A program made the translations under genes and the position numbers. Below the pieces are notes generated by a model. It worked only from the letters and a program-made list of their open reading frames with translations. It was not told the origin of the DNA and ran no database searches. This document shows, in pieces, positions 3,566-33,960 of a stretch of DNA of 36,488 nucleotides (positions within the stretch are counted from its first letter, which is position 1; each line of letters opens with the position of its first letter). This DNA is from Deltaproteobacteria bacterium (GTDB taxonomy: Bacteria > Desulfobacterota > GWC2-55-46): NCBI GenBank assembly GCA_016218095.1, contig JACREV010000086.1, positions 1 through 36,488 on the forward strand. The letters are read 5' to 3'.

Positions 3566-3620
3566 AGGGGCTCCTTTATTATATAGGCCGGGTTGGAAAA
3601 CCCGCCTATCGTAGATGCCT

Positions 3621-4355: not shown

Positions 4356-4407
4356 CCTCCCCTCGATCCCCTCCCGGCTATCGGACTTGGGGAGGGGAAG
4401 TTTAGGC

Positions 4408-6396: not shown

Positions 6397-6402
6397 TTTT
6401 TG

Positions 6403-6431
6403 TTTTCATAATCTGGCCCCTGTGATATAAT
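6403..6431 (+). promoter_or_regulatory. candidate extended -10 promoter for the hydrogenase genes
   Basis: TGATATAAT (TGn + TATAAT, 6423-6431), with a weak -35 TTTTCA at 6403-6408 and a 17-nt spacer, about 50 nt upstream of the small-subunit ATG. Confidence 0.35.
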
Positions 6432-6481
6432 TCTCAAGTAATCTTAAGCACTTAGCATTTTCAAGAGAGGTTTGGTCCGTT

Positions 6482-7240: not shown

Positions 7241-7296
7241 GGCACCCAAGCCCTCCCCCTTTAAAAGGGGTAAAAAAGCAAAAAGGTTTGAGGATA

Positions 7297-8583
7297 ATGA
7301 AGAAAGACCTGAACATAAAGATACACGAGATAACGAGGGTCGAGGGGCACGGCAACATCGTCATCGACGTGAAGAAGGGGAAGATAAAGGAGCTTAAGCT
7401 CGAGATCATCGAGTCCCCGCGCTTCTTCGAGGCGATGCTCCGTGGAAGGCGCTACGACGAGGCACAGCACATAATGTCCCGCATCTGCGGCATCTGCGCC
7501 GTCAGCCACACCTCGGCCTCGCTCAAAGCCATCGAATCAGCGATGGACATAAAGATCTCGAAGCAGGCGGAGCTTCTAAGGAAGCTCGCGTTTTACGGGG
7601 AGACGCTCCAGAGCCACATACTCCACCTCTTCTTCCTCGTCCTCCCTGACCTCGCGGGCGTAGGCTCGATTGTCCCGCTCCTCACCTCGCACCCTGATAT
7701 GGCGAGGACCGGGCTCGAGCTCAAGAGGCTCGCGAACGACATCTGCGCGACCGTCGGCGGCAGGCACATACACCCCATTTCGCTCTTCCCAGGAGGTGTC
7801 GTGCACACGCCTAAGCCGCAGGAGCTCAAAAGGCTCCGGGAGGCGCTCGAAGGGTCTTTCGAGGGGTTGGAGATGATGCTTGCATTCCTTAATGATCACC
7901 CGTTCCCGGAGTTCAGCTTGAAGCGCGAGTATATCTCTTTGAAGGACAGGGGCGAGTACGGGCTCTACAACGGAAACCCGGTATCCTCCGACAGTTACGC
8001 CTTCAAGCCCGAGAGCTACACGAGGAAGATAAAGGAGTATGTGGTCTCTCACTCCGCGGCAAAGCACGCAAAGACAGAGGGCACATTCATGGTCGGGGCG
8101 CTCGCCCGCGTCAACAACAGCTACAGGCAGTTGAGCCCGAGGGCGAAGGCCGCGGCGAAGAAGGCGAAGCTCACGGTCCCCTCTTACAACCCGTTCCTCA
8201 ACAACATGGCCCAGCTCATCGAGTGCTATCATTCGACCGAAGAATCCATCTCCCTCATTGAGAAGCTCCTCCTCATGGGCCCGAAACCCGAGCCCGTGAA
8301 AAAGCCGAAGGCCTGGGGGCGCGGCTTCGGGGTAGTCGAGGCCCCGAGGGGGACTCTGTACCACGAGTACAAGATCGATAAGGACGGGCTCATCGAGAAG
8401 GCGGTCTGCATCATACCGACGGCTCAGAACCTCCGCTCCATAGAAGACGATCTGCGCGCTCTGGTGCCCGGGCTCCTCGGCAGACCCAAGGCCGAGATAG
8501 CCCGCGCGGTAGAGACGCTTGTCCGCGCATATGACCCCTGCATATCATGCTCTACGCATATCATGGACGTGGAGTTCGCGTAA
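7297..8583 (+). CDS. [NiFe] hydrogenase large subunit (Cys, not Sec, at the C-terminal Ni ligand)
   Basis: N-terminal RICGICAVSH and C-terminal DPCISCSTH Ni-Fe ligand motifs. ATG 7297 is preceded by GAGGA. The listed 7234 start would begin inside a repeat hairpin. Confidence 0.9.
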   Translation: MKKDLNIKIHEITRVEGHGNIVIDVKKGKIKELKLEIIESPRFFEAMLRGRRYDEAQHIMSRICGICAVSHTSASLKAIESAMDIKISKQAELLRKLAFYGETLQSHILHLFFLVLPDLAGVGSIVPLLTSHPDMARTGLELKRLANDICATVGGRHIHPISLFPGGVVHTPKPQELKRLREALEGSFEGLEMMLAFLNDHPFPEFSLKREYISLKDRGEYGLYNGNPVSSDSYAFKPESYTRKIKEYVVSHSAAKHAKTEGTFMVGALARVNNSYRQLSPRAKAAAKKAKLTVPSYNPFLNNMAQLIECYHSTEESISLIEKLLLMGPKPEPVKKPKAWGRGFGVVEAPRGTLYHEYKIDKDGLIEKAVCIIPTAQNLRSIEDDLRALVPGLLGRPKAEIARAVETLVRAYDPCISCSTHIMDVEFA

Positions 8584-9959: not shown

Positions 9960-10022
9960 AATTTTAGGGTCAGACGGATCATGAGATGAAGGTGGAGGAT
10001 TGACTGAACGGAGGTGATATGT

Positions 10023-10502
10023 ATGTTCGAGCTGAAGAAATGGGATCCTTTCAAGGAGCTTTCAAGCATCCAGAGAGACATGGATGACCTCTTCAGAAGG
10101 GTCTTCGGCGGCTTGACGCCCAGTATCCTGAGGAGAGAGGCGTTCAGGGGCGAGTGGTATCCGGCGATCGACTGCTACATGAAGAATACCCAGTTCATAG
10201 TGCACGCGGACCTGCCGGGCGTAAACCCTAAGGACGTCGATATCTCGATTGCGGGTAATGTGCTCACCATCCGCGGCGAGAGGAAGTCCGACGTCGAAGA
10301 GAAGAAAGAGGGGTATCTCTTCCACGAGACCTCTTTCGGGACGTTCGAGAGGGTGCTGACGCTGCCGGAGGGCGTAGACGCCTCCAAGGTGAAGGCCACC
10401 TACAGGAACGGCGTCCTTGAGTTGACCATGCCCGCAAAGGCCGAGGCGCTTCCGAAGAAGGTGACGATCGAGATCGAGGCTGAGACAAAGAAGGCCGCCT
10501 GA
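10023..10502 (+). CDS. Hsp20/alpha-crystallin family small heat-shock protein
   Basis: Alpha-crystallin domain (DLPGVNPKDVDISIAGNVLTIRGERK...FERVLTLPEGVD...NGVLELTMPK). ATG 10023 lies 8 nt after GGAGG (10010-10014). Confidence 0.9.
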   Translation: MFELKKWDPFKELSSIQRDMDDLFRRVFGGLTPSILRREAFRGEWYPAIDCYMKNTQFIVHADLPGVNPKDVDISIAGNVLTIRGERKSDVEEKKEGYLFHETSFGTFERVLTLPEGVDASKVKATYRNGVLELTMPAKAEALPKKVTIEIEAETKKAA

Positions 10503-10550
10503 CCTGAATAGCAAAACCGAAAGGCCACCTCATCTCGTAAAGTGAAAAAA

Positions 10551-10581
10551 CCCTGCAATGGAGCTTGCGGGGTTTTTGTTT
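10551..10581 (+). terminator. rho-independent terminator after hsp20
   Basis: CCCTGCAA (10551-10558) / TTGCGGGG (10565-10572) stem followed by TTTTTGTTT. Confidence 0.6.
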
Positions 10582-10613
10582 ACATTTCTTAATCTTTTAG
10601 ATTTTAATACTCT

Positions 10614-10642
10614 TTGACAATTAACCTATTTTAGGTTATCTT
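10614..10642 (+). promoter_or_regulatory. methyltransferase promoter with embedded palindromic operator
   Basis: TTGACA (10614-10619), 17 nt, then TATCTT (10637-10642). The spacer contains the perfect palindrome TAACCTA-TTT-TAGGTTA (10622-10638). The ATG at 10649 is only 6 nt past the -10, so the transcript is probably leaderless. Confidence 0.5.
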
Positions 10643-10648
10643 CTTCAT

Positions 10649-11410
10649 ATGAAACAAACCCCATTACCTTTTACCGCAGAAAAGAATTCCAAAAAACGCA
10701 TACAAGGTGGCGAAGCCACTACAAATGTACTGCTTTCAGCTTATACTGGAAGCAACGCAGATATATTTCCACATATATTATCATTGCATGTCCCTGCCGG
10801 TGCTCATATCGCTGATGTCACCTACGGCAGAGGAGTTTTCTGGCGCAATGTAAATTTGTCCAAATATGTACTCTACCCAACTGACATCTCACACGGCATT
10901 GATTGCCGTGCGTTGCCTTACAATGATGCTTCGCTTGATGTGGTCGTGCTTGACCCACCCTACATGGAAGGATTATTTCGTAATCAAATCCAGCATAAAG
11001 CTGGCGGAGGTTCTCATTCTGCTTTCCGCAATTATTACAGCAACGGCGATGAAGTTTCTTCGGGCGCAAAGTGGCACGCGGCAGTAACCGATTTATATTT
11101 CAAGGCAGGCTCAGAAGCTTACCGTGTTCTAAAGGATAATGGAGTTTTGATAGTTAAATGTCAGGATGAAGTTAGCGCAAATCGCCAATGCCTTACCCAT
11201 GTCGAGATTATTAACGAATATGAAAAAAATGGGTTCTATACTAAAGACCTATTTATCGTAGTACGCACAAACAGGCCTGTTATCACACGCTTAAAAAAAC
11301 AAGTACACGCAAGAAAAAACCACAGCTATTTTTTGGTTTTTATAAAGCTTTCGGTAGGGAAAAGTAGTTCTCGCTTCCGTTCGCGCACAAACTCTTCTAA
11401 AAGCAGATAA
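10649..11410 (+). CDS. DNA methyltransferase (amino-MTase, DPPY motif) of a type II R-M system
   Basis: AdoMet motif I-like [11 protein letters not shown], followed about 45 aa later by catalytic VVLDPPY. Low-GC gene, convergent with the C-R pair. Confidence 0.7.
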
Positions 11411-11979
11411 GGGTCCTCATGATATGGGGGTTTTGGAGGCCATGTTACATCCATTAGCGTTGCAAGTAAATATTGCCGCTGCTCATATGTATAGCCTTTC
11501 CAAGAACTACGGGGAAGGTTTTCATTTTTAGCAAATACAAATCTCCATTTTTCCTCGAATGCAAAAAGATTAATTGCAAGCAAATCAAACTCGCCTGCTA
11601 CGAGACAAGTCGTTTCCAGTTTTTCACCATTTGGCAAGCAAACAACGCGCCTGTCACTTGCATCCACCTGTGTTTTCCCATACCACGTACCATCATCCAG
11701 TTTTCGAATAGTATTCGTTTGCAATGATTTAACCTCTATGACTATGTCAACCCCCTTATATACGATATGTCTGTCACCTTTACGCTTACGGTCATGATCG
11801 TCGGCTTTGCCGATTTTAGATATTCCTTCATGCCCAAGAAACATATCATGGAACTTTTTTTCGGCCACATATCCTAACAACATACCTCTGAGACTCGGAT
11901 TGTTTTCAACAATAGATGTCAGCTCACGAGCTGTTATCTGCCACTTATTCAATATTGTTTTTGGCACAATGATCCTCAA
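11326..11979 (-). CDS. putative type II restriction endonuclease (PD-(D/E)xK-like)
   Basis: [17 protein letters not shown] fits D-x14-E-x-K. The gene is immediately downstream of, and overlaps, the C-protein gene. I recognise no family by eye. Start is uncertain (TTG 11979, GTG 11967). Confidence 0.55.
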
Positions 11980-12202
11980 GTTCTTTTAAAATTTTATATG
12001 GTTCCAAGCCCAGCGCCTTTGCAACTTCTAGAAATTCCACTATATCAAGCCTACGCTCACCACGCTCATATTTGGAAACATACGACTGAGGTCTCCCAAG
12101 CCGCATAGCCACATCAGCCTGTGCTAAACCTTTCTTTTTTCGGGCTTCAACCAAACGAGTTCTAAACAAGTTATAAGTATCTGAAAATATAGATTTGCTC
12201 AT
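11945..12202 (-). CDS. XRE-family HTH controller (C) protein of the R-M system
   Basis: HTH_3-like LAQADVAMRLGRPQSYVSKYERGERRLDIVEFLEVAKAL. 85 aa from ATG 12202. Its 3' end overlaps the nuclease ORF. The listed GTG at 12211 abuts the -10 box and is rejected. Confidence 0.75.
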   Translation of the reverse strand: MSKSIFSDTYNLFRTRLVEARKKKGLAQADVAMRLGRPQSYVSKYERGERRLDIVEFLEVAKALGLEPYKILKELEDHCAKNNIE

Positions 12203-12211
12203 TGGACCCAC

Positions 12212-12249
12212 ATTATAAAACCCAAAACAGAATAACCCAAATCGGGTTA
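12212..12249 (-). promoter_or_regulatory. C/R operon promoter with C-box-like operator
   Basis: Minus strand has TATAAT (12217-12212) 9 nt before ATG 12202, so the transcript is leaderless or nearly so. The weak -35 TTGGGT overlaps TAACC-CAAATCG-GGTTA (12233-12249). Confidence 0.45.
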
Positions 12250-12258
12250 TTCTGTTTT
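12224..12258 (-). terminator. 15-bp perfect hairpin; probable terminator of the DUF488 gene (bidirectional), also carries the C-box-like site
   Basis: AAAACAGAATAACCC (12224-12238) / GGGTTATTCTGTTTT (12244-12258), loop AAATC. T-runs follow on both strands. Confidence 0.5.
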
Positions 12259-12311
12259 ACAAATAGAGTTGTTATTTCAGATTTTTTACTAAGAAAAAAC
12301 AAGAAAGATTT

Positions 12312-12656
12312 TTAAAGCATCTCCTTAAGGAGTTTCCTGTGGCATGGTTCATTTTCTTTGCAGGTGCAAAGGAGTGTCACATCCTTACGGGCGGTCTTGA
12401 CGATCGATTTGAGTTCGGCAAGGAGCTCCCTTTTGCGTGGGTCTTTCTTGAATTCTTCCTTGTATGCGCGGGTAAACTCCGTCCACTCCATCTCTCCGGC
12501 CTTCCATTTCTTAATGAGCGCGGCCTGCGGCCCGAGGTCTTTTATCCACAGGTCCTGCGCCTCTTTCCTGACGCCCCTCGGCCAGTACCTCGTCACGAGC
12601 ACTCGTACGCCGTCCTTTTCATCCGGCTCGCTGTAGACGGACTTTGTCTTGACCAT
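12312..12656 (-). CDS. DUF488 (YeaO-like) family protein
   Basis: Characteristic VRVLVTRYWPRGVRKE...WIKDLGP...LLCTCKENEPCHR sequence. GGAGG lies upstream of the ATG. Confidence 0.8.
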   Translation of the reverse strand: MVKTKSVYSEPDEKDGVRVLVTRYWPRGVRKEAQDLWIKDLGPQAALIKKWKAGEMEWTEFTRAYKEEFKKDPRKRELLAELKSIVKTARKDVTLLCTCKENEPCHRKLLKEML

Positions 12657-23172: not shown

Positions 23173-23248
23173 GGGGCAGTAGCTCAGTTGGGAGAGCGCA
23201 AGGCTGGCAGTCTTGAGGTCAGGGGTTCGATCCCCCTCTGCTCCACCA
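23173..23248 (+). tRNA. tRNA-Ala (anticodon GGC), CCA encoded
   Basis: A 76-nt cloverleaf folds by hand. Acceptor GGGGCAG/CTGCTCC with the G3:U70 Ala identity pair; D-arm TAGCTCAGTTGGGAGAGC; anticodon loop CT-GGC-AG; T-arm GGGGTTCGATCCCC; 3' ACCA. Confidence 0.95.
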
Positions 23249-23494: not shown

Positions 23495-24565
23495 TCAAAC
23501 AGACTCCCACTCGAGTTTTCTTTTTCTCTGCTGACAATCCCGGCAAAGGCCGTCAATCATCCCGATCGAGATCCCGCCGCACCCCCCGCACTCTTGCGCC
23601 TCAAAACCCATAAGAGTTTTCGTGAGCCGCAATTCTTCGACCTGTCCTGACTTTAAAGTGAATGACTTCACGGCGGCATTACGGCAGGCTGACTCGCATA
23701 GCCCGCATCCGATGCATCTGCATGCCTTGAAGGTTATTTCCGCAGACCCGCCTTCCGCGGAGTACTCAAGGGCGTCCGTCGGGCAGAAGCTCACGCACCT
23801 AATGAGGCCGTTGCAGCCGTCGCACTTGTCCGCGTCTATCTCCTTTCCAATAAAAGGCAGGGGCACGCACGGGTCTATATTGCGCTGTCCTTCCTCAAGC
23901 TCCCTTATTATTTCAAGGGACCTTCGTTGTCTGGCAGGGACCGGGCCGGGGTCACGGTCCCGTTCGGGATCCTCCGGTTCAGGGACGAACCTTGAGATCG
24001 CCCTACCTATCCCCCTGAACATCTCCCGCCTTGGACCGCTCTCAAGGTCATGCCGGTCAGCCGACCTTGTCAGAAATATCCTCTCCCTCCTTCCAAATAG
24101 AAGGAGCAACCTGTTCGCGGCATCGATATTGGACCGGATGATCCCGCCTCCCGTGGCCCTGCCGCAATTTTCGCAATCGCCTGCAAGGAGCCCCAGGTCT
24201 TTCGCGCTCTTTAAACAGAGGGCGTCAAGAAAGGCGTAATCCAGCGCCCCGAGGCAAGTGACTGCGGCAGAGCGCCCTCCCGCACTGGAACACCTGATGC
24301 GCAACTCTTTGCCGGTATCCGAAACCGCCTGGCTGGCTACTTCCGCTAGAAAACTCTCCTTAACGCTCAACGCTCCTGCCGGACACGCGTTCGCGCATAT
24401 GCCGCAGTCGTCGCAAAGGCCGTAGTCTATCTCAAGCGGATTTAGAGTGATCGCCCGCTTGGTGCAGACGTCCAGGCATGGATGACCGGAATAGTCCTTG
24501 TAACGGCCAGGCAGGCACTTCCCTGGCGCAACCCTGAGCTTATCGAGAAAACGCATCTGACTCAT
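23495..24565 (-). CDS. cytoplasmic multi-[4Fe-4S] ferredoxin-domain protein (NapF-like polyferredoxin)
   Basis: CDDCGICANACP, CDGC..C..FCP and CIGCGLCESAC motifs, plus further Cys groups and a C-terminal CGGCGG...CRDC ribbon. No signal peptide. Overlaps the TorD-like gene. Confidence 0.7.
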   Translation of the reverse strand: MSQMRFLDKLRVAPGKCLPGRYKDYSGHPCLDVCTKRAITLNPLEIDYGLCDDCGICANACPAGALSVKESFLAEVASQAVSDTGKELRIRCSSAGGRSAAVTCLGALDYAFLDALCLKSAKDLGLLAGDCENCGRATGGGIIRSNIDAANRLLLLFGRRERIFLTRSADRHDLESGPRREMFRGIGRAISRFVPEPEDPERDRDPGPVPARQRRSLEIIRELEEGQRNIDPCVPLPFIGKEIDADKCDGCNGLIRCVSFCPTDALEYSAEGGSAEITFKACRCIGCGLCESACRNAAVKSFTLKSGQVEELRLTKTLMGFEAQECGGCGGISIGMIDGLCRDCQQRKRKLEWESV

Positions 24566-25196
24566 GGAATATCCACTCCAGCTCCGAATCGATGAATTGC
24601 CCGGTAAAACAGGCTATCTCCCTGTAAAAGGCATGCACCATCGCCCGTTCCACCTTCTGGAGGAAAGGCCTGCACCATCTTCCAAGGTGCGCTTTCATGA
24701 ATTCCGACTGGAGCCTTTTTGCATGCCCGGCCCCCTCCGCGTCGCCCTTTTCAAGCGACGAGGCTTCCATCGCGCACAGATGTCCCATGAACTCAAGCTC
24801 TATGCCGAAGTGATCAGGGAACAGGGAACATGCTTCAGGCATGCTGAAGCCGCTCTTCTTATAAAACAGGAGCACACGGCTTGAGGCATCCCCGCATAAC
24901 TGTCCTTCGGTCGAGGCCTGGACCGATTCGTATGGCGAAAGAAATGCCCCTGAGGAAAGAAGACACGACGCAAATTCGACCGCAAGCTCTTCTATTATCT
25001 CATCGTCTTTTCTGCCTTCAAACCCCTCCAGCAACCTCTCGGAGAAGGCCCCGACGATGTTCCCGTCCCTCAACGCCTGAAGGAACGGCAGGTCCACTTC
25101 TCTCAAAAATACCCTTGAGGCGAGTGAATAGAGGCCCTGCCTTGCCTCTGCCTCCGTTATCGCCTCAAACCCTGGACGGGTAGCTGTCATTTGCAT
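24540..25196 (-). CDS. TorD/DmsD/NarJ-family redox-enzyme maturation chaperone
   Basis: 218 aa, all-helical. N-terminal ...RQGLYSLASRVFLREVD..FLQAL... and central ...PDHFGIELEFMGHL... as in TorD-family chaperones. GGAG lies upstream of the ATG. Confidence 0.7.
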   Translation of the reverse strand: MQMTATRPGFEAITEAEARQGLYSLASRVFLREVDLPFLQALRDGNIVGAFSERLLEGFEGRKDDEIIEELAVEFASCLLSSGAFLSPYESVQASTEGQLCGDASSRVLLFYKKSGFSMPEACSLFPDHFGIELEFMGHLCAMEASSLEKGDAEGAGHAKRLQSEFMKAHLGRWCRPFLQKVERAMVHAFYREIACFTGQFIDSELEWIFHESDAFSR

Positions 25197-25687
25197 CCCT
25201 TTATCTCCGGTTCCGGCGGCGGGAGCTCGGCGTCAGGCCGTACCGGCCTGCCCTCTTTGCCGTATCTGAAATAGGGCGCGCCCTCGCAGATCCCCTCAAG
25301 GTGCCTGCCGGTGTTGTAGTAGGCCCTTATCCCGCCGCTCAAGTTGTAAACGTTAAGGCCCTGCTTTTCAAGGACGAGGCAGGCATTCTCGCTACGCCTG
25401 CCCGAGGCGCAGTAGACGATTACCGTCTTTTCGCCGTCAATCCCCGCCGCCCTTTTTGTGAGAACGGACACAGGGATATTTATGCTCCCCGGTATCCTGC
25501 AATCATTGTACTCGTGAGGCTCCCTCACGTCGACCAGGACCGCTCCACCTTTGGCAAGCATCTTATCCGCGTCAAAGACATATATGTCCTCGCAGGCGGA
25601 CAAGGCGCGCGGGACCAAAAAACCTGCCAGGAGAGCGGCTATCGCGCCCATCGCTTGCACAAGCCTATGCGCTCTTTTTCTTTCCAT
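25187..25687 (-). CDS. rhodanese-domain sulfurtransferase, predicted lipoprotein
   Basis: Rhodanese fold with active-site loop CASGRRS (VLVDVREPHEYN...IVYCASGRRS...NLSGGIRAY). From ATG 25687 the N-terminus MERKRAHRLVQAMGAIAALLAGFLVPRALSAC ends in the lipobox L-S-A-C. Confidence 0.8.
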   Translation of the reverse strand: MERKRAHRLVQAMGAIAALLAGFLVPRALSACEDIYVFDADKMLAKGGAVLVDVREPHEYNDCRIPGSINIPVSVLTKRAAGIDGEKTVIVYCASGRRSENACLVLEKQGLNVYNLSGGIRAYYNTGRHLEGICEGAPYFRYGKEGRPVRPDAELPPPEPEIKGCK

Positions 25688-28148
25688 CCTTCTTCGCGCC
25701 CGGAGCCCGCCCCCTGAAATCCGGCCCGGAGTATGTGTATCTGAGCGTCTCCTCGTAGGCCTTTCTTGCGGCTTCCATGTCGACCTTGTAGTCCTGGTAT
25801 CTGTCCCCGGGCTCCGCCTTCCCAACCGTTACGACAGTATCATACCAGCCCTGCGAGCCGCCTATCGGGTCCGTGGAGACCGGGATGATGAAGTTGGGGT
25901 GCGCCCCCTTGTCCTTCCAGAATACATGCAGGTACTCCGGGTCGTCGGACGTTGCCCACTCCGGTTTTTCCTTGAGTTTGAGGGATGCGAGCCTCCCGTA
26001 CTCGGTATGGCCGAAGGAATTCGAGACGGCGACCACCCTGGGATGGATCCCCTCGGTTACGAAGGCCTTGGTCACCATATATCCTATCCTCGATGTTATC
26101 CTCACGAGGTCGCCGGTCTTTATGCCTTTCTTCTCCGCGACCTTCGCGTTTATCCAGACAGGGTTATAGTGGATTATCTCGGCAAGCCACTTCTGGTTCG
26201 CTGTCCTTGACTGGACATGGACGTTCCACTTGAAGGTTATGAGCACCAGATCGTCCTCTTTCATCTTTTCGTGCGCCGGTATCGGCTCATAGTGGGGGAG
26301 CGGGTTGAACCCGTGCCTGGCCCACTCCTCGGCATAGATGTTTATCTTCTTGTCCTTCGTGCCAAAGCCGTTTTTCTTGTATAGCCCGTATTCAGGCTCG
26401 GCGTCTACGGGCTTCGGAGACCAGACGCCGTTCTTCTTGAGATACGCCCACCCACCGGCCTCCTTGACCCCCGGCACGCTCTCGGCCATATACTTGATAT
26501 AGTCCTCGGTCGTGCCGTAGTCGAAGTACTTTTTTACGCCCCTGCCGCCCGTGGGGTCGAGGTGCTTGGTCACCAGCTCAAGGACTATGTCCCTGTAGCT
26601 TTTGCATTCTCCAAGCGGCTTTACGACCGGCTGTCTTATGCCGACCCACGGCGTCTCGATTGAAGACGGCATATTCTCGATGTCGAACCGCTCAAGATAG
26701 GTCGTCTCCGGGAGGATGAGGTCCGAGAGCGCGGTCGCCTCGCTCATGAAGGTATCCATGGACACATGGAACGGGATGAGCTTCTCGTCGAGATAGACCT
26801 CGCGCCATGTCTCCGCGTCAGGGTTTGAATAACACCCGTTGTAATAATGCCTGATGTAGACGGATATCTTCTGGCGCCCCTCCTTTATCATCTGGGCCAC
26901 GTGGTGGCTGACCTTGTGCTCCGCCAGCGGATATTCGCGGGGGTGCGCAAGCTCGCTTTTTTCCTTTGGAGCCGGGGGCTCGGGCTGCGGGTGCTTGAAG
27001 GAGACCCCCCTCGGAAGGCAATAGCCGCCTTTCTCTTCTATGCTGCCTGTCACGATGTTAAGTAGCATCGTGCACCTTTCGCTGTACGCGCCGTTGAAGT
27101 GCTTGGCCGGCCCCCTGTACGTGTACGTGGTGCACCTCGGGGCCGCCAGCGCGAACTCTATCGCTATCCTCTTTATATCCTTCGCCGGAACGGAGCTGAC
27201 CTTCTCCGCCCACTCGGGCGTGAACTGTTCGAGGTACTTCGCGAGCTTGTCCGCGGGATAGTTGGTCCATCTGTTTATGAACGCCTCGTTATGGAGCTTG
27301 CTACTGACGATCACGTTGCACATGGCGAGGGCCACCGCCCCGTCCGTCCCCGGGAATACGGGGAACCATTCATCGGCCTTCCCAGCGGTATTCGACATCC
27401 TCGGGTCGAAATACACGAGCTTGGCGTGGTTATCGACCCTGCCCTCGACCACACGCTGGACATAAGGGTTGTGGAAATAGCCGGCTTCGTAGACGTTGCC
27501 GCCGAAGATCAGCATGTACTTTGTATTCGTGAAATCCGGGGTCTCGATATCCGGGCCCCATGTGGCCTGCATCCCGATCTTCTTGCTCGACTCGCATATG
27601 GAGGTATGGTTGAGCCTGGTGTCCGAACCGAGGGCGTTCATAAACCGATTGTCAAAGCCGAACCACCTGTTCCTGCCTATGTGGAGCGCTATCTCGTTCG
27701 GGCTCCCCTTTCCGGCCTTAGCCCGGTCAAGGACCTCATTAATCCTTGCCGCGAGCTCCTGGTAAGCCTCTTCCCATGTTATCCTCTTCCACTTGCCTTC
27801 GCCGCGCCTGCCGGCCCTCCGCATCGGATACAGGACCCTGTCGGGGTCATAGAGCTGATTTGTTCCCGCGTTGCCCTTTGCGCACAGCTTCCCCCTGTTC
27901 CCCGGGTGCTTCGGGTTGCCTTCGAGTTTTACGACCCTTCCGTTTTCTATGAACGCGAGCCCCCCGTCCTCGACATTGCACTGAAGGCACGTATACGGGA
28001 CGGCCTCTACCCTCGGAGCGCCTGTGACATGGGAAGCGGTGACGCCTCCGTCCGCGAACTCCATGGCCTTCAAGACCTTCGGCCCCAAAGCCACGGCCGC
28101 CGCCGCAACGGCCCCTATCTTCAGAAAGTCCCTTCTCTTAAGCCCCAT
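25665..28148 (-). CDS. Tat-exported molybdopterin (bis-MGD) oxidoreductase catalytic subunit, PsrA/PhsA/TtrA/SrdA-type
   Basis: Twin-arginine signal MGLKRRDFLKIGAVAAAA. N-terminal FeS motif C54-x2-C57-x3-D61-x27-C89. 827 aa with molybdopterin-oxidoreductase architecture. Flanked by NrfD and 4Fe-4S subunits. Confidence 0.9.
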   Translation of the reverse strand: MGLKRRDFLKIGAVAAAAVALGPKVLKAMEFADGGVTASHVTGAPRVEAVPYTCLQCNVEDGGLAFIENGRVVKLEGNPKHPGNRGKLCAKGNAGTNQLYDPDRVLYPMRRAGRRGEGKWKRITWEEAYQELAARINEVLDRAKAGKGSPNEIALHIGRNRWFGFDNRFMNALGSDTRLNHTSICESSKKIGMQATWGPDIETPDFTNTKYMLIFGGNVYEAGYFHNPYVQRVVEGRVDNHAKLVYFDPRMSNTAGKADEWFPVFPGTDGAVALAMCNVIVSSKLHNEAFINRWTNYPADKLAKYLEQFTPEWAEKVSSVPAKDIKRIAIEFALAAPRCTTYTYRGPAKHFNGAYSERCTMLLNIVTGSIEEKGGYCLPRGVSFKHPQPEPPAPKEKSELAHPREYPLAEHKVSHHVAQMIKEGRQKISVYIRHYYNGCYSNPDAETWREVYLDEKLIPFHVSMDTFMSEATALSDLILPETTYLERFDIENMPSSIETPWVGIRQPVVKPLGECKSYRDIVLELVTKHLDPTGGRGVKKYFDYGTTEDYIKYMAESVPGVKEAGGWAYLKKNGVWSPKPVDAEPEYGLYKKNGFGTKDKKINIYAEEWARHGFNPLPHYEPIPAHEKMKEDDLVLITFKWNVHVQSRTANQKWLAEIIHYNPVWINAKVAEKKGIKTGDLVRITSRIGYMVTKAFVTEGIHPRVVAVSNSFGHTEYGRLASLKLKEKPEWATSDDPEYLHVFWKDKGAHPNFIIPVSTDPIGGSQGWYDTVVTVGKAEPGDRYQDYKVDMEAARKAYEETLRYTYSGPDFRGRAPGAKKDGKKKSA

Positions 28149-28163
28149 CGCGGTACCTCCGGT

Positions 28164-29072
28164 TTATGTCAGGGGGATTATCTGCCCGCCGTAAACGATT
28201 ATGTATCTGAGGGCAAGGACCCCGACCAGGACCATCGCGGATATCAACGCCGTTGTCCCCGCCTTAGGCTCTGCCCCCTTCGCGAGCACGTTCGACCAGG
28301 AGACTATGACGGGTATTACGAGCCCGATGGTAACAAGCCCTATCCAGAAGACCAGCGACAACCCGCCGCTCAATATCACCCCCGCCGCCTCCCTGCTTAA
28401 GGGCGACGACGTCGACGCCGTTATGAGCATGAAAGCCACGAGCGCAAGCTGGAAGAGGAGGAGCACCGCGTTCGCGGCGTTGAGCGAGGAGAGCCCTTTC
28501 CTGCCTCCCGAGAGCGAGACGGCAAGGGATACAGCCGCTATGCCGGTTGTGGCCGAGGCCACCATGAATACGGGTATTACCGCCCCGTCGGACCATAGGG
28601 GCCTCGCGTTCGTCGCAACGTTCAGGGCAACGGCCGTGTACGCCGATACCCCGACGGCGCAAACCGAGCCTATGACGAGTATCAGCGCCTTTGAGCCCTT
28701 CACCGCCTCCACCCCTCTCTGCAGGGCTATGTTCAGGAGCGAAAACAGGCCCAGGCCGATAAGGAACCAGACACCCCATGTAAGCGGGGCCGTGACGCTC
28801 CCCCTGTAGAGGAGGGTTATGAATCTGAAGGGCCTGTCGAGGTCAAGGATGAGTATCGGGACGTCCACGATGATCGAAAGGAGCGCGAGGTACGCCCCGG
28901 CTGCGGCTATCTTCTTATACCTTTCGTCGTCAAGGTATGAGGCCGCCGCCGAGGCGATGAACGACCCGGCCGCCATGCCGCTCAGGAAAAAATGGACGAC
29001 TATCAGCATCCCCCAGGGGACCAGACCTTCCCCGAAAAAGTGGGGCACGTTATACGAAACCATACCGTTCAT
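28164..29072 (-). CDS. NrfD/PsrC-type integral membrane quinol-interacting anchor subunit
   Basis: 302 aa, about 8 TM helices, in the usual position between the FeS and catalytic subunits. ATGA overlap with the upstream gene. Confidence 0.85.
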   Translation of the reverse strand: MNGMVSYNVPHFFGEGLVPWGMLIVVHFFLSGMAAGSFIASAAASYLDDERYKKIAAAGAYLALLSIIVDVPILILDLDRPFRFITLLYRGSVTAPLTWGVWFLIGLGLFSLLNIALQRGVEAVKGSKALILVIGSVCAVGVSAYTAVALNVATNARPLWSDGAVIPVFMVASATTGIAAVSLAVSLSGGRKGLSSLNAANAVLLLFQLALVAFMLITASTSSPLSREAAGVILSGGLSLVFWIGLVTIGLVIPVIVSWSNVLAKGAEPKAGTTALISAMVLVGVLALRYIIVYGGQIIPLT

Positions 29073-29743
29073 ATTACCCCCTTCTGCTCTAACGCCCCTT
29101 CCGTTCCGGCAATCGATGTCACCCCGCCCCTCATCGCCTCCACATACTCCTCGAGCCCTATATAGAAGACCGAAGGGTCATTGCCTGTGGAGGGTTTGAG
29201 CTGCTTTACGGGGTTCCTTCCGACATAAAGGGATATCTCGCTGCCAGGGTCGTTGAGGTCGCCGAAGATCCTTGCCCTGCCCAGGCAGCTCTGGACGCAG
29301 GCGGGGAGCAAACCCTTCTCTATCCGGTGCACGCAGAAAGTACACTTGTCGGCGGTCTTCGTGACGGCGTTCAGGAACCGAGCGTCGTAAGGGCAGGCTG
29401 TCATGCACGAGCGGCAACCTATGCACTTGTCGTTGTCGACGACGACCGCGCCGTCACCCCTCTTATAGGTGGCCTTTGTCGGGCAGACCCTTACGCATGA
29501 AGGGCTTTTGCAGTGGTTGCAGAGCCTCGGCAGGAAATGCCTCGTCACGTTCGGGTAAGTACCCTTGTCAACATACTTGACCCACGCCCTGTAGACGCCA
29601 ACTGGCACATCGTTTTCCGCCTTGCAGGCGACCGAGCACGCATGGCATCCGATGCAGCGCCGGAGGTCTACGACCATCCCCCATCGGACCTTCCTGCCTG
29701 CCCCCTCCTTTTCACCTACATAATGCTGATCATCTCTTTCCAT
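29069..29743 (-). CDS. four-cluster [4Fe-4S] electron-transfer subunit (PsrB/TtrB/DmsB-type)
   Basis: WGMVVDLRRCIGCHACSVACKAEN, CNHCKSPSCVRVCP, CIGCRSCMTACPY and CTFCVHR...PACVQSC motifs. Confidence 0.9.
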   Translation of the reverse strand: MERDDQHYVGEKEGAGRKVRWGMVVDLRRCIGCHACSVACKAENDVPVGVYRAWVKYVDKGTYPNVTRHFLPRLCNHCKSPSCVRVCPTKATYKRGDGAVVVDNDKCIGCRSCMTACPYDARFLNAVTKTADKCTFCVHRIEKGLLPACVQSCLGRARIFGDLNDPGSEISLYVGRNPVKQLKPSTGNDPSVFYIGLEEYVEAMRGGVTSIAGTEGALEQKGVI

Positions 29744-29821
29744 AAAAAAACCTCCGCTTTACTGCCGCGACCATGCCCATAACCAATCGAGGCAAGTCAT
29801 CGGCACCTACCTCTCCATCAC

Positions 29822-31177
29822 CTAAAACTCGAGTTGCAGCCTTGAAAAAACGAGGGTCTCGTTCCTGGTGGACTGATTTGCGGCGCCCAGGGCGACACTG
29901 TCCGGATGTCCCTTGCCCAGCATCGCATAATCGACTCCGCCCTCGATGCTCACGCTCTCCCAGAGCAGGTACTTGAGCTGGGCATAAAGATCGGTGCCGA
30001 TATACTTTTCAAAGCCCGGGTCCGCGGCCGTATGCGTATACCAGCCGGCCCCTACATAGCCTTCAAGCTTATCCATTATGGGAATGGCCGCGTTCGCCTG
30101 GATGGTAACCAGTCCGTTGCCGAGGTTCGTATTATCCGTGGCGTAACCGCCGCCGTCTATGTTTACGAAGCTCGTGTCAATGCCGGTGTCCGTGGGACCC
30201 TGCACGTTTAGCTTCCCGGTGTACCCCCAGTACCCCGTAGTGCCGACGATCGACATCGGGGTAATAAAGGAATCGGCGCTGTCCTTTGCGGCGTCATCGA
30301 AGTCGTTGTCCCCGCTGGCGTAGATGCCCAAGAGGCCGACCCTGACCGTCCTGACGGGGACTTTCACCTCAGCCTTGACGGCAAAGCCCGAGTTCTTCCT
30401 CTCCGTGGGATCCCCTCCGGACGCCGGGACCGTCCTTTCTCCCCAATTATATAAGACGAACGCGTTGAAGTCGGCTGACTCGAACTTTCCGCTGTACCTT
30501 ACGCCCGTGTAATACTCGTTTGTCGTGCTTGCGCCGGTCACGGAGTTGGCCGGCTTGGTGTTGTCATTCAGGGCATAGAAGGACGCCCCGAACCCGGCCT
30601 TTGTGTCGGCGTCAAAAAACCACTGGTCCACGTCGTCTGCCGGATGAGAGCTCTCCGAGCCTTCGTCCAGGTTTCCATGGGCCATGCGCACCTCCACGTC
30701 CGCGACCTTGCCGAGGAGCATGTATGTGAGGGGGTTGTAGTCCCAGTCGCCGCTGAAAAGCGTGTCCCCGAATTTATCCGACATCGGCACCAGCCCGGCC
30801 ACTATGGTAAAATCCGTGTGGTTCGGTATGGGGGCTGAGATATAACCATGCCTCAGGGCGACCGCCGGGTCACCGCTGGATGAGCCGTCCAGAGTGTATC
30901 TTGCGTTGGCGACATTTGAATTTATATGCCCGATATTGAGCTGGATGTGAGCCTTTAAGCCGCTGTCCCACTCGAAATCAAGCGTAGGCCTGAACCTGAG
31001 CCTGGATGCCTGAATATCATCGCCTTCCGTAAAAGCATCGTCCTTGCCTGCGTCCTGATAATATGAATTGACCCTGAATTGCCCATGCCAGGCGGTTTCA
31101 ACAGCATACGCATTTTCCAGCCCGGTAGCGTAAATCGCGCAGAAAAACAAGACAAACCAAAAAATCCGCTTCGACAT
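29822..31177 (-). CDS. outer-membrane beta-barrel (porin-like) protein
   Basis: Signal peptide MSKRIFWFVLFFCAIYATGLENAYA. Alternating amphipathic, Gly/Tyr/Asp-rich strands. C-terminal ...FSRLQLEF with a terminal Phe. First gene of the operon. Confidence 0.65.
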   Translation of the reverse strand: MSKRIFWFVLFFCAIYATGLENAYAVETAWHGQFRVNSYYQDAGKDDAFTEGDDIQASRLRFRPTLDFEWDSGLKAHIQLNIGHINSNVANARYTLDGSSSGDPAVALRHGYISAPIPNHTDFTIVAGLVPMSDKFGDTLFSGDWDYNPLTYMLLGKVADVEVRMAHGNLDEGSESSHPADDVDQWFFDADTKAGFGASFYALNDNTKPANSVTGASTTNEYYTGVRYSGKFESADFNAFVLYNWGERTVPASGGDPTERKNSGFAVKAEVKVPVRTVRVGLLGIYASGDNDFDDAAKDSADSFITPMSIVGTTGYWGYTGKLNVQGPTDTGIDTSFVNIDGGGYATDNTNLGNGLVTIQANAAIPIMDKLEGYVGAGWYTHTAADPGFEKYIGTDLYAQLKYLLWESVSIEGGVDYAMLGKGHPDSVALGAANQSTRNETLVFSRLQLEF

Positions 31178-31559: not shown

Positions 31560-31588
31560 ATCATATCCGTGTTCAACTGCACTGTCAA
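31560..31588 (-). promoter_or_regulatory. candidate sigma70-type promoter of the barrel/oxidoreductase operon, flanked by inverted repeats
   Basis: Minus strand: TTGACA (31588-31583), 17 nt, TATGAT (31565-31560). IR TGCAGTTG (31546-31553) / CAACTGCA (31574-31581) and IR GCACTG (31579-31584) / CAGTGC (31591-31596) overlap it. Confidence 0.45.
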
Positions 31589-31686: not shown

Positions 31687-31747
31687 AAAAATGACTATGA
31701 ATTCCCTAGACTTCCCCTCTCCCATCAAGGTGGAGGGGGGTTAAACA

Positions 31748-31882
31748 TCAGGATTGCCGGTGTGAAATAGTCCTGCCCGGCGTACAGGTCCCGTGCCAAA
31801 GAAAGGTCAAGAAGCGGCTTACGAGCCTGTCCGCAAGGCAGACAAACGCTAAAAAAAGAATCCCGCCGACCAGATACCACAT
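31748..31882 (-). CDS. 44-aa single-TM mini-protein, paralog B (not in the ORF track)
   Basis: Hand translation gives MWYLVGGILFLAFVCLADRLVSRFLTFLWHGTCTPGRTISHRQS*. AGAGG lies 6 nt before the ATG. Paralogous to 31911..32072 at both DNA and protein level. Confidence 0.45.
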   Translation of the reverse strand: MWYLVGGILFLAFVCLADRLVSRFLTFLWHGTCTPGRTISHRQS

Positions 31883-31910
31883 GCAAGACCTCTTTTCTTT
31901 TACGCCTTGG

Positions 31911-32072
31911 CTAAAATCCGCCTGACCCTCCGGCGTTATTCCGCGAAGGCTTTCCCGGCGTGCAGTTCCCGTACCAAAGCAGGTTGCAAAAGCGGCTCAC
32001 GAGCCTGCCAATCAGGTATACGAACGAAAAGACGAGAGCAACACCAAAAATCCCGCCGACCAGATAATCCAT
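31911..32072 (-). CDS. 53-aa single-TM mini-protein, paralog A
   Basis: MDYLVGGIFGVALVFSFVYLIGRLVSRFCNLLWYGNCTPGKPSRNNAGGSGGF*. GGAGGTG lies 3 nt before ATG 32072, and the gene starts 34 nt after the methyltransferase stop. The longer listed ORF (to 32183) would overlap the methyltransferase. Confidence 0.5.
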   Translation of the reverse strand: MDYLVGGIFGVALVFSFVYLIGRLVSRFCNLLWYGNCTPGKPSRNNAGGSGGF

Positions 32073-32106
32073 GCGCACCTCCGTCACGCCTTGCCTTAAA
32101 CTCTTC

Positions 32107-33717
32107 CTACTCGAAAAAGTTTTTCTGGGTCGTCGCCTTCTTTTCGACCTTCGCCTTTTTGAATGTAAGGCCGCCGCGCTCAAGGTCGGGGTATACGGCC
32201 TCCTCTGTCCCGTTCAGCAGTCCAGCTATCGTCAACAACTGGACCTTGGGGAAGCTCTTTCCTATCGGAGATTCGTAGTACCCCGTTCCGACCGCCTCCT
32301 CGCGCATGGGCCTTGTCGGCTCGGAGAGGGTAATAAAGAGCCCCATCTCCGCGCCCTCGCGCTCGACGACGCCTACGAGGTCGCGCACCATGGAAACGCT
32401 CACGTTCTCGCCGCCCTTGACCGAGACGACTATCTTCTTTGCGTGGCCGCCGTTCTTTTCGTCCTGAAAATAGATGAGCCCGTCTATGCCTGAGTCGGCC
32501 CCCTTCTTTTTGCCCTGATAAGGTTGCGCGTTAACGAGCGAGCACGCCCACCACTGGAACTGGTATTTGTCGCGGACCGCAAGGTCCCTTGCGCCGTCGA
32601 GGTCTTTAGGCGTGCCGTGCACCTCGAAAGTGATATCCGGGAACGCGTCACGGAGGCGCTTTTCGATGAGTGAGATTGCGAGGTGAGTGATGTCGATGCC
32701 TATCCATTGGCGGTTGAGTTTTTGGGCCGCATGGACGGCTGTGCCGCAACCGCAGAAGGGGTCAAGGACGATGTCGCCTTCTTCACTTGAAGACTTAATT
32801 ATACGCTCCAAGAGAGAAAGGGGTTTCTGCGTTGGGTAACCCAGAGTTTCCACATTCGAGCCGTGCAAATGCTCTATGTCGTCCCAATTATCTGAAATAG
32901 GTTGACCGTGCATTTCATCAAGAAAACGCTTCAACTGCGGCACAGCGCCCGGTTTTGATTGAACAATCAAACCATTGTCGTAAGCTTTTTGCATACGTTC
33001 TTTTGTCCACCGCCATACTCTTGTCACACCAAGAAATTCATAAGTCAAATTTGGTCTGTTTTTGTTTGGATTTGTTAAATCACCGAGCCTGTATTTGCGT
33101 CCATCCTCATTTGTAAAACGATAGAAATTTTCAACATACTCAGGATCATGCTCAGTATATACTTTGAAAAATTTAGCATTGTCAGTTTTAGCATATCGAA
33201 AGATTATATCCCTGCAATTTGGAAAATTAGAAGTAGTATGGCTTTTGGGCTGTGACCGTAGCCATGAAATCTCATTCCTGAAGTTCTCATTCCCGAACAC
33301 CCCGTCCAGGACAATCTTCAAATAATGGCTCGCCGTGGGGTCGCAGTGCAGATACAGACTCCCGGTGGGTTTAAGGACGCGGTGGAGCTCAAGGAGGCGG
33401 TTCGCCATCATTGTAAGGTACGCCATCATGTCGTTCTCGCCGAGAAAATGCCGGATGGCCCTTATCATCTCGGAGACGTTCGTGTTCCCCTGACGGAGTA
33501 TCTCGGTATACTCGCGCTGGGCCTGCTCGCCCCAGTGCCAGCTGTCCTCGAAGGCGGTTATCTGCGCGTCGGACTGGTGCCCCTTGGGCGACTTGAAAAG
33601 TATGTTGTAGTCGCGCTTGGAGTTGAAAGGCGGGTCGAGGTAGATGAGATCGACGCTTTCATCCGCTATGTGCTCGCGGAGGATGTCAAGGTTGTCGCCG
33701 AAATAGAGTCGGTTCAT
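32107..33717 (-). CDS. beta-class N6/N4 DNA methyltransferase fused to a C-terminal Mrr-like (PD-(D/E)xK) restriction-endonuclease domain
   Basis: Motif IV DLIYLDPPF near the N-terminus; motif I IVLDPFCGCGTAVHAAQKL after a variable region. C-terminal ~130 aa with GIDGLIYF...IVVSVKG (D...S-V-K) resembles the Mrr_cat nuclease core. Confidence 0.85.
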   Translation of the reverse strand: MNRLYFGDNLDILREHIADESVDLIYLDPPFNSKRDYNILFKSPKGHQSDAQITAFEDSWHWGEQAQREYTEILRQGNTNVSEMIRAIRHFLGENDMMAYLTMMANRLLELHRVLKPTGSLYLHCDPTASHYLKIVLDGVFGNENFRNEISWLRSQPKSHTTSNFPNCRDIIFRYAKTDNAKFFKVYTEHDPEYVENFYRFTNEDGRKYRLGDLTNPNKNRPNLTYEFLGVTRVWRWTKERMQKAYDNGLIVQSKPGAVPQLKRFLDEMHGQPISDNWDDIEHLHGSNVETLGYPTQKPLSLLERIIKSSSEEGDIVLDPFCGCGTAVHAAQKLNRQWIGIDITHLAISLIEKRLRDAFPDITFEVHGTPKDLDGARDLAVRDKYQFQWWACSLVNAQPYQGKKKGADSGIDGLIYFQDEKNGGHAKKIVVSVKGGENVSVSMVRDLVGVVEREGAEMGLFITLSEPTRPMREEAVGTGYYESPIGKSFPKVQLLTIAGLLNGTEEAVYPDLERGGLTFKKAKVEKKATTQKNFFE

Positions 33718-33779: not shown

Positions 33780-33960
33780 CAACCTTCCTCCATCCCCCTC
33801 ACCCCCCCCTCTCCCACAAGGGGAGGGGGGGGAATGAAACCCCTCGCGGAAGCCCCCTCTATCCCCTCCCCCATCAAGGGAGGGATTTTAAAGAAGATAA
33901 GCTCCCCCCGTCCCTCTTTGGAAAAGATGGAAACAGCCCCCCTCAAACCCCTCAAAAATT
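33780..33960. repeat. cluster of family-B G/C-tract palindromic repeats in a divergent intergenic region
   Basis: CCCCTCTCCCACAAGGGGAGGGGGG (33806-33830), CCCTCCCCCATCAAGGGAGGG (about 33864-33884), and a degenerate CCCTCTTTGGAAAAGATGG. The listed ORFs here (33734..33988, 33744..34004, 33686..34045) are translations of the repeats. Confidence 0.65.

Follow-up and report, generated by a model that had tools for sequence, protein, structure and literature searches.

A conserved seven-gene molybdoenzyme module with an outer-membrane barrel and a lipoprotein rhodanese, and its possible link to arsenic-type oxyanions

Which substrate is served by a respiratory molybdoenzyme that is encoded together with its own outer-membrane barrel and a periplasmic lipoprotein rhodanese? 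The question is raised by seven minus-strand genes on contig JACREV010000086.1 of a Deltaproteobacteria bacterium (assembly GCA_016218095.1), of which a stretch of 36,488 nucleotides (nt) was analyzed (hereafter the window). The genes encode the barrel, an iron-sulfur subunit (B), a membrane subunit (C), a catalytic subunit (A) with a molybdenum-bis(pyranopterin guanine dinucleotide) (Mo-bisPGD) cofactor, the rhodanese, a TorD-family chaperone and a polyferredoxin. An original prediction made from the sequence read them as a candidate module for respiration of chalcogens (sulfur or selenium species). Our analyses indicate that the module is a conserved, functionally undescribed variant within the Arr/Arx/Psr/Ttr group of respiratory molybdoenzymes. 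We interpret it as one unit built around a periplasm-facing, quinone-linked Mo-bisPGD oxidoreductase of an uncharacterized clade, with an arsenic-type (possibly antimony) oxyanion as the most likely substrate; our confidence in this interpretation is about evenly balanced.

A conserved module within a widespread enzyme family

The module is not peculiar to the window. The identical seven-gene order is found in at least six other contigs, in which A is 77-93% identical (L085, 85%; L093 and L095, 92-93%; L108, 82%; L003/L120 and L091, 77%), and is partly visible in the incomplete contigs L005, L006, L007 and L098. The parts also recur in shuffled form. In L030, L090 and L100 (about 52% identity) the arrangement is barrel-TorD-polyferredoxin-cytochrome c554-NapC/NirT-B-A-rhodanese, with NrfD replaced by cytochromes. 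With an identical order in several contigs and the same content, rearranged, in others, the arrangement is far beyond chance, as expected if the genes form the single module originally proposed. That the gene content is kept although the order is shuffled also speaks for a functional link between the enzyme and its barrel and rhodanese partners. Two relatives with A 85% identical (L001 and L002) retain the barrel, B-C-A and polyferredoxin genes and have lost those for the rhodanese and TorD, both of which thus appear dispensable in some hosts. The loss in L001 (12457-12578, GCA_040961595.1) is clean, with 120 nt between the A and polyferredoxin genes, and the module there adjoins narGHJI.

Relatives of catalytic subunit A number in the thousands. 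When species-representative genomes were scanned for A, 593 candidate loci were obtained; neighboring genes were typed with the window proteins as queries and by unbiased clustering. The best 80 of these 593 loci (48-81% identical) come from Beta-, Gamma-, Alpha- and ‘Delta’-proteobacteria, Nitrospinota, Nitrospirota and others, many of them from groundwater, and across these phyla the family core is B-(C)-A-TorD-...-polyferredoxin. TorD is encoded in at least 51 family loci and the polyferredoxin in at least 64, and they are therefore ancestral family traits rather than additions peculiar to the window. The barrel, the lipoprotein rhodanese and the pairing of TorD with a cytoplasmic polyferredoxin are all genuine conserved partners of the enzyme, yet the claim that three parts go beyond the canonical enzymes holds in part: TorD and the polyferredoxin are ancestral to a family present in hundreds of genomes and correspond to ArxD and ArxB', and lineage specificity is confined to the barrel and to the rhodanese in its catalytic, lipidated form. 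A rhodanese-fold partner as such occurs throughout the family (see below). The novelties of the lineage are thus the dedicated channel family and the active rhodanese. In a neighbor-joining tree internal to the family, the barrel- and rhodanese-bearing lineage of the window forms a tight clade, and a second group with both genes (L030, L090) is placed elsewhere. Relatives often add Mrp/ApbC, MoaA and MoeA genes beside those for the polyferredoxin and TorD; three small genes of proteobacterial clusters (s150, s231 and s130) matched no significant Pfam or NCBIfam family. No library model and no paper that we found gives the clade a function, consistent with the view that this is not a described system.

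All seven open reading frames (ORFs) were found where the original prediction had placed them (Table 1), and its domain assignments and B-C-A core order were borne out by Pfam and NCBIfam searches and by the gene coordinates, respectively. Each gene has an ATG start and an upstream GGAGG-like ribosome-binding site. Overlaps occur between B and C (4 nt), A and the rhodanese (23 nt), the rhodanese and TorD (10 nt), and TorD and the polyferredoxin (26 nt), with gaps of 15 nt between C and A and 78 nt between the barrel and B. A hairpin in the latter spacer (29789-29813) is weak, has no T-run and makes an unconvincing terminator; co-transcription of the barrel gene with B-C-A cannot be proven from sequence. 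A candidate sigma70-type promoter lies about 380 nt 5' of the barrel ATG, and sigma54 promoter matches in a scan of the window are no more than expected by chance. An Rfam search of the region upstream of the barrel gene found no molybdenum-cofactor riboswitch or other Rfam element, and the leader of this gene is not conserved among the relatives compared. The GC content of the operon is unremarkable (0.55-0.62).

Table 1. Genes of the module and a candidate promoter, with positions in the window (aa, amino acids; Tat, twin-arginine translocation; TM, transmembrane segments).
Feature	Position	Strand	Basis
Outer-membrane barrel channel, 451 aa, signal peptide	29822..31177	-	ORF; first gene of module
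Four-cluster [4Fe-4S] electron-transfer subunit B, 224 aa	29069..29743	-	Fer4_11, E 5e-30
NrfD/PsrC-type membrane quinol/quinone subunit C, 302 aa	28164..29072	-	NrfD, E 7e-36; ~8 TM (hydropathy scan)
Mo-bisPGD catalytic subunit A, predicted to be Tat-exported, 827 aa	25665..28148	-	Pfam and NCBIfam domains
Predicted periplasmic lipoprotein rhodanese, 166 aa	25187..25687	-	Rhodanese, E 5e-21; lipobox
TorD/NarJ-family cytoplasmic chaperone, 218 aa	24540..25196	-	Nitrate_red_del, E 5e-21
Cytoplasmic polyferredoxin, 356 aa, 26 Cys, ArxB'-like architecture	23495..24565	-	Fer4 motifs; no signal peptide
Candidate sigma70-type promoter, TTGACA-17-TATGAT	31560..31588	-	Consensus scan, 11/12; low confidence

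Active site, regulators and neighbors of the catalytic subunit

Subunit A has a Tat signal (RRDFLK) and Molybdop_Fe4S4, Molybdopterin and Molydop_binding domains. Its placement is based on comparisons of hidden Markov model (HMM) and PDB scores, together with the internal neighbor-joining tree. None of the NCBIfam equivalog models was passed (score/cut-off in bits: PhsA, 375/694; DmsA/YnfE, 263/778; ArrA, NF041714, 194/1600; TtrA, NF011567, 129/1750). When compared with solved structures, the family profile of A scores 284 bits against Thermus PsrA and 252 bits against Shewanella ArrA, making the two about equally remote.

The substrate site is more informative. Based on alignment, A of the window has Cys185 as Mo ligand and a substrate site that includes G158-R159, H181, T182 and K190. 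In a profile-to-structure alignment the family pair G158-R159 falls on G-R165 of ArrA, where Thermus PsrA has G-H145; the family sequence H181-T-S-x-C185-x-x-x-K-K190 corresponds to H189-S190-x-x-C193-x-x-x-x-K198 of ArrA, and the context of the Cys in PsrA differs. We take H189, S190 and K198, which surround the Mo ligand C193 of ArrA, to have roles in binding arsenate. G158-R159 is present in 70/70 family sequences, and R159, H181, T182, C185 and K190 are invariant or nearly so. A 2026 comparative study (PMC12949373) found the Gly-Arg pair without exception in Arr, Arx and Ttr-like arsenate reductases but not in true Ttr, and reported that R165 of ArrA binds As(V).

The FS0 motif of A, C54-x2-C57-x3-D61-x27-C89, has Asp in place of the third Cys in 68/70 family members, a position occupied by Cys in both PsrA and ArrA. 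The substitution implies either a [4Fe-4S] cluster with an Asp ligand or a [3Fe-4S] cluster, as in AioA. Among the other subunits, B has TtrB as its best NCBIfam match (259 bits vs. a cut-off of 416), and its N-terminus, MERDDQHYVGEKEGAGRKVRWGMVVDLRRCIGC, contains neither a hydrophobic nor a twin-arginine signal. C has about eight hydrophobic segments in a hydropathy scan, as in the eight-helix NrfD/PsrC anchors. The polyferredoxin matches a Thauera family member by BLASTP (E 5e-19) and, across some 200 residues that take in the middle domain, the protein occupying the ArxB' position in L055 (E 3e-10); its matches in the PDB are generic ferredoxin-domain matches only.

The regulators encoded beside the enzyme point in the same direction as its active site. 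At 49 family loci there are genes for an AioX-type binding protein (X; 50 proteins), a histidine kinase (S) and a sigma54 activator (R), hereafter XSR. The X protein of the Thauera locus L004 scores 225 bits against AioX (6esv), 132 against ArrX and ≤47 against PhnD/PtxB. All seven residues of the AioX pocket, among them Cys106, which binds As, are kept in at least 47 of the 50 X proteins, as is the hydrophobic loop that characterizes the arsenite-binding proteins AioX and ArxX. From a panel of 10 oxyanions that included thiosulfate, tetrathionate, selenate and antimonite, AioX and ArxX bound arsenite alone (Badilla et al. 2018). Upstream of the structural genes, sigma54-type promoters are more frequent than in controls (15/47 loci vs. 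18/237 control windows).

Genes for arsenic handling are also among the neighbors. The closest XSR-bearing relatives (L003, L091 and L120; A 77% identical) have the order arsR-acr3-X-S-R-(sigma54 promoter)-barrel-B-C-A-rhodanese-TorD-polyferredoxin-cytochrome c, in which a near-consensus sigma54 promoter precedes the barrel gene and ACR3 scores above its equivalog cut-off. ACR3 is encoded in 8 family loci and an ArsP_1-type permease in 7, and an ArsE-type thioredoxin adjoins L004. At two loci (L052:1568-10833 and L055:708-12598) the family genes polyferredoxin-B-A have immediately upstream of them a cluster of the ArxA type (polyferredoxin, cytochrome c554, NapC/NirT, A, B, C); the ArxA-type A has the motif FGRGWG and scores 435 bits against the ArrA model. 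Two arsenic-type molybdoenzymes side by side suggest distinct substrates or directions. A literature search for an AioX-linked Psr-like enzyme found none. A Thioalkalivibrio candidate for ‘alternative arsenite oxidation’ was rejected as a relative, being a cytoplasmic, Soe-like enzyme outside this family.

Among the named systems, Arx (arxXSR and arxB'ABCD of Alkalilimnicola ehrlichii and Ectothiorhodospira) resembles the family in content. The family set of X, S, R, polyferredoxin, A, B, C and TorD equals that of Arx, the polyferredoxins are homologous in architecture, the Gly-Arg substrate motif is common to both, and the hosts are alike (nitrate reducers and anoxygenic phototrophs). However, the order in Arx is B'-A-B-C-D, compared with B-C-A-D-polyferredoxin in the family and B-C-A-rhodanese-D-polyferredoxin in the window. 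A of the window is only ~30% identical to the ArxA-type proteins of L052 and L055, scores 194 bits against the ArrA model where the Arx-type protein scores 435, and has the FS0 Asp in place of the third Cys. The signature of ArxA is reportedly XGRGWG, whereas the window has IGRNRW and the family GR(N/D)R. In the window lineage, a porin and an active lipoprotein rhodanese are present in addition, and XSR is missing. Arr (ArrAB(C); Shewanella ANA-3, PDB 6cz7) is likewise a Mo-bisPGD enzyme that is exported to the periplasm by Tat and has Cys as ligand; R165, H189, S190, C193 and K198 are all matched in the family, and Arr loci are often linked to ars genes. Arr differs in gene order and at Tyr166, which is Asn/Asp in the family, and the family of the window adds an NrfD anchor, a polyferredoxin and a rhodanese-fold partner. 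There is also precedent for a ‘sulfur-type’ relative that is an As(V) reductase with a Gly-Arg pair, in the Ttr-like arsenate reductases of Anaeromyxobacter PSR-1 and Pyrobaculum.

A clade named ‘Unk’ (unkBCA), with B-C-A order and no known function, was placed between Arr and Psr/Phs by Duval et al. (2008, BMC Evol Biol 8:206). Its description fits the family (not Arr, Psr, Phs or Ttr; B-C-A order; Tat signal on A; branches with Azoarcus EbN1 and Dechloromonas RCB), and the family is found in Aromatoleum and Dechloromonas among others. Matched by description alone, the family is probably the divergent Azoarcus/Dechloromonas branch of Unk. Duval et al. (2008) do not mention XSR, polyferredoxin, rhodanese-fold or porin partners, or an arsenic-type signature.

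The clade thus has a coherent arsenic signature at the family level, from which we infer the substrate of the window enzyme. Several observations weigh against extending it in this way. In the window and its closest relatives (85-95%; L085, L093, L095 and L001), XSR, ACR3 and other ars genes are all absent to a distance of 9-10 kb, and the arsenic link is therefore transferred from orthologs of ≤77% identity and from the active-site signature. Among the HMMs, PhsA scores highest for A, and the profile fits PsrA marginally better than ArrA; Tyr166 of ArrA is not retained, and the Gly-Arg pair could bind other oxyanions. The catalytic loop of the rhodanese is of the canonical six-residue sulfurtransferase type, the classic partner of polysulfide and selenite enzymes (Sud, SrrE/F). 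No biochemical data on any family member were found in the literature.

The barrel, the rhodanese and a proposed mechanism

The barrel has a predicted cleavable signal peptide. An AlphaFold2 model built from 41 homologs is of high confidence and has 18 strands and a long internal loop at about residues 288-355 (predicted local distance difference test, 88; predicted TM-score, 0.85). Its best PDB matches are AlgE (TM-score 0.63-0.67), followed by the 18-stranded MOMP, chitoporin and OccK. The AlgE/OccK channels share with it 18 strands and an internal constriction loop, but sequence identity is ~12%, there are no alginate genes nearby, and the barrel family occurs almost only beside periplasmic Mo-bisPGD clusters. 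OprO/P and the general porins are 16-stranded and thus unlike it. The family comprises 261 proteins at E<1e-5 among 5.8e9 searched, all annotated as ‘hypothetical’ and confined to metagenome-assembled genomes of ‘Deltaproteobacteria’, Nitrospinota and Nitrospirota. R59-x-R61-x-R63 is invariant among the homologs and other basic residues are conserved, which suggests that the channel is anion selective.

Barrel homologs lie beside periplasmic Mo-bisPGD clusters or XSR regulators in 7/7 sampled contexts and 34/48 metagenome loci, the 34 being nearly all of the contigs long enough for a judgement. In these places the barrel accompanies enzymes of the A family, an A-B enzyme linked to a cytochrome bd-like protein, an enzyme resembling ArxA (L131) and an Aio-type arsenite oxidase (L088). 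The last of these (L088:2597-13282) is encoded in the order XSR, solute-binding protein, radical-SAM gene, cytochrome c, barrel, AioB, AioA. Here the barrel gene is directly upstream of aioB, XSR lies upstream, AioB passes its cut-off and AioA has a Rieske_3 domain; the literature we found contains no description of an outer-membrane channel dedicated to arsenite oxidase. A barrel homolog also closes another conserved cluster, with another uncharacterized enzyme type (L089:1662-10317, L092:1141-10443, L086/L087, L107 and L130). This cluster encodes a sigma54 regulator, an 874-aa Mo-bisPGD A (26% identical to A of the window), B, a 155-aa protein, TorD, cytochrome c, a membrane protein like cytochrome bd subunit I, a further cytochrome c and the barrel. 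Six betaproteobacterial loci have recruited an unrelated Porin_4 gene in place of the barrel.

In the rhodanese, a hydrophobic signal sequence is followed by a lipobox (L-S-A-C30); the protein also has the catalytic loop C93-A-S-G-R-R-S and a conserved C-terminal extension with C134-E-G and a terminal KGCK (ortholog alignment A2). Its nearest solved structures are CoADR-rhodanese, PspE and GlpE, and the match to Sud (1qxn) is weak (23 bits, E 6e-4). Clusters in proteobacteria also carry a small periplasmic protein, s156, with a rhodanese fold that lacks the catalytic Cys. The window rhodanese and the s156 proteins match in hhalign with a probability of 94.7% (E 6e-8); s156 is therefore a rhodanese-fold homolog, so that such a partner is family-wide, and the window lineage has what is predicted to be the catalytically competent, lipid-anchored version. 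Most s156 proteins (L004:14758-15228 and homologs, alignment A3) have a vicinal Cys-Cys pair near the N-terminus, and all have T-C-E-x-G at the C-terminal end. Together, the three thiols recall As(III)-binding sites such as that of ArsD.

The lipid anchor and catalytic Cys of the window rhodanese make As-S (thioarsenate) chemistry an attractive idea. Published work treats monothioarsenate as an analog of thiosulfate and notes As(III)-induced rhodanese genes beside arx/ars. A sulfur link via an active rhodanese is possible, and it would fit As-S chemistry better than polysulfide or selenium respiration. A rhodanese lipoprotein also accompanies a barrel in the ExtH-ExtI system of Geobacter (compared by description), together with multiheme cytochromes; the window operon contains no genes for a cytochrome conduit, based on Pfam searches.

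We propose that the Arg-rich, 18-stranded channel would admit an anionic substrate to the periplasm or release the product. A and B would be assembled in the cytoplasm with the help of TorD and the ArxB'-like polyferredoxin, which probably serve cofactor loading ahead of export. The pair would then be exported by Tat on the signal peptide of A, B having no signal of its own, and dock on the eight-helix NrfD subunit, exchanging electrons with the (mena)quinone pool. The substrate would bind at the Cys185-ligated Mo via Arg159, His181, Thr182 and Lys190, like arsenate in ArrA. The host of the window is likely to carry out menaquinol-driven reduction (as an arsenate-type reductase), given that it is a strict anaerobe with a NiFeSe hydrogenase; in nitrate-reducing or phototrophic proteobacterial carriers, anaerobic arsenite oxidation (as in Arx) would be equally plausible. 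The rhodanese may strip or add sulfane sulfur on As-S species (thioarsenates are structural analogs of thiosulfate), or may shuttle As(III) on its conserved thiols.

A broader and more tentative reading, to which we give clearly less credence, is that the clade forms a further widespread family of arsenic molybdoenzymes with a bioenergetic role, the third besides Aio and Arr/Arx and so far concealed by ‘thiosulfate/polysulfide reductase’ annotations, with the window lineage encoding a module for thioarsenate respiration or oxidation. The anion-selective channel would then admit thioarsenate or arsenate, the rhodanese would remove or add sulfane sulfur, with monothioarsenate serving as a thiosulfate analog, and the Mo enzyme, with its unusual Asp-ligated or 3Fe-4S FS0, would interconvert As(V) and As(III).

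Alternative substrates, genomic surroundings and significance

The main rival is the chalcogen reading favored by the original prediction, which we consider unlikely. The enzyme would be a polysulfide, elemental-sulfur, thiosulfate or selenite reductase with menaquinol as electron source; the porin would admit sulfur or selenium species, and the lipoprotein rhodanese would act as a Sud- or SrrE-like carrier of sulfane sulfur (or selenium) to the Mo site. The scores and the membrane subunit agree with this: PhsA is the best library model for A, Thermus PsrA the best solved structure, and C is of the eight-helix NrfD/PsrC type. So does the rhodanese, which appears catalytically competent from its PspE/GlpE-like loop and lipobox, and which has precedent in a rhodanese lipoprotein of the psr operon of Desulfurivibrio dismutans; a porin beside a ttrBCA homolog is likewise known from Dissulfuribacter, and extra periplasmic rhodaneses occur near gammaproteobacterial clusters. 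Psr/Phs with Sud, and Srr (SrrABCDEF), share the A/B/NrfD plan, rhodanese partners (Sud; SrrE/F) and, in SrrD, a TorD-type chaperone. Srr of Bacillus selenitireducens consists of Psr-like A, B and C, the rhodaneses srrE/F and the chaperone srrD; SrrA is inseparable from PsrA/PhsA in trees, and srr can be told from psr only by the extra rhodanese and chaperone genes. Although gene content is thus alike, A of the window (compared with Srr by description) is not PsrA/PhsA-like at the substrate site, where it has an Arg as in ArrA and not the His145 of PsrA. Gene order differs (A-B-C vs. B-C-A), the PhsA score is about half of the cut-off, and Sud is remote, at 23 bits only. The linked sensors are of the AioX type, and neither AioX nor ArxX bound thiosulfate, tetrathionate or selenate in vitro. 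ACR3, ArsR, ArsE, Arx and Aio genes are neighbors. Most proteobacterial rhodanese-fold partners lack the catalytic Cys, and sulfur transfer is thus no family-wide requirement. Taken together, the active-site signature, sensors, ars genes and Aio/Arx neighbors favor arsenic-type oxyanions over sulfur or selenium species.

An antimonate-specific respiratory reductase, a member or close relative of AnrA for which the porin would admit Sb(OH)6-, seems less probable still. The pnictogen-type evidence (active site, sensors and ACR3) applies equally to antimony, and ACR3 and ArsR systems also handle Sb(III). AnrA, compared here by description, is reported to be a respiratory Sb(V) reductase of the dimethyl sulfoxide reductase family, distinct from ArrA and present in a deltaproteobacterium; it is reported from Geobacter sp. 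SVR and Desulfuribacillus stibiiarsenatis (BHU72_07145). AioX, however, bound no antimonite in vitro, and the family is common in organisms without known Sb(V) reduction. A divergent tetrathionate reductase is highly improbable: the B-C-A order, TtrB as best model for B and a Ttr-type enzyme with a porin in Dissulfuribacter speak for it, but TtrA reaches 129 bits of a cut-off of 1750, B lacks the Tat signal that defines Ttr, C has about eight helices and not nine, the Gly-Arg pair missing from true Ttr is present, and AioX and ArxX bound no tetrathionate in vitro.

The genes around the module were also considered. The selenocysteine machinery noted in the original prediction is real (SelB, 4408-6396; an AIRS/SelD-like gene, 2522-3484; a NiFeSe hydrogenase) but unrelated to the operon, from which it is separated by more than 17 kb, beyond the rib/nusB/nrdR/HU housekeeping genes. 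Genes for the small and large NiFeSe hydrogenase subunits (6482-8583) lie beside the SelB and SelD-like genes (2522-8583). A selenocysteine link was rejected on the grounds that A has Cys185 in 70/70 sequences and that SelB/SelD adjoin the hydrogenase. The proposed tRNA-linked island is unproven: a tRNA-Ala(GGC) gene (23173-23248) is adjacent and the context is variable in relatives, but neither a tRNA-Ala-derived direct repeat nor an integrase was found.

Upstream of the barrel gene is a 536-aa fusion of an N6/N4 DNA methyltransferase and an Mrr-type nuclease domain (32107-33717), flanked by a 27-nt GC-rich palindromic repeat (31714-31740 and 33806-33832), an arrangement that could represent a mobile unit for restriction-modification. 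Two tandem paralogous small ORFs of ~44 and ~53 aa with hydrophobic N-termini (31790-32090, minus strand) lie close downstream of the methylase gene; they share the pattern M[DW]YLVGGI...RLVSRF...LW[YH]G.CTPG and correspond to repeat D1 (31840-31884 and 32030-32074). At 10000-12500 the GC content is low (0.40-0.49 vs. ~0.57 elsewhere); this patch carries a second gene for a DNA methylase (10649-11410) and was probably acquired horizontally as a segment of its own.

Databases usually label the A family “thiosulfate/polysulfide reductase”. If the arsenic or antimony reading is true, such automatic annotation would inflate inferences on the sulfur cycle, and surveys based on aioA, arrA and arxA would miss a major player in arsenic mobilization. 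The barrel family would be the first outer-membrane channel tied specifically to periplasmic metalloid-oxyanion enzymes, including those of the Aio type, and the active rhodanese would give a concrete way to test whether enzymes act on thioarsenates. Direct tests are possible because several carriers are in culture, namely Thauera aromatica, Aromatoleum spp., Hydrogenophaga taeniospiralis, Sedimenticola and Allochromatium humboldtianum.

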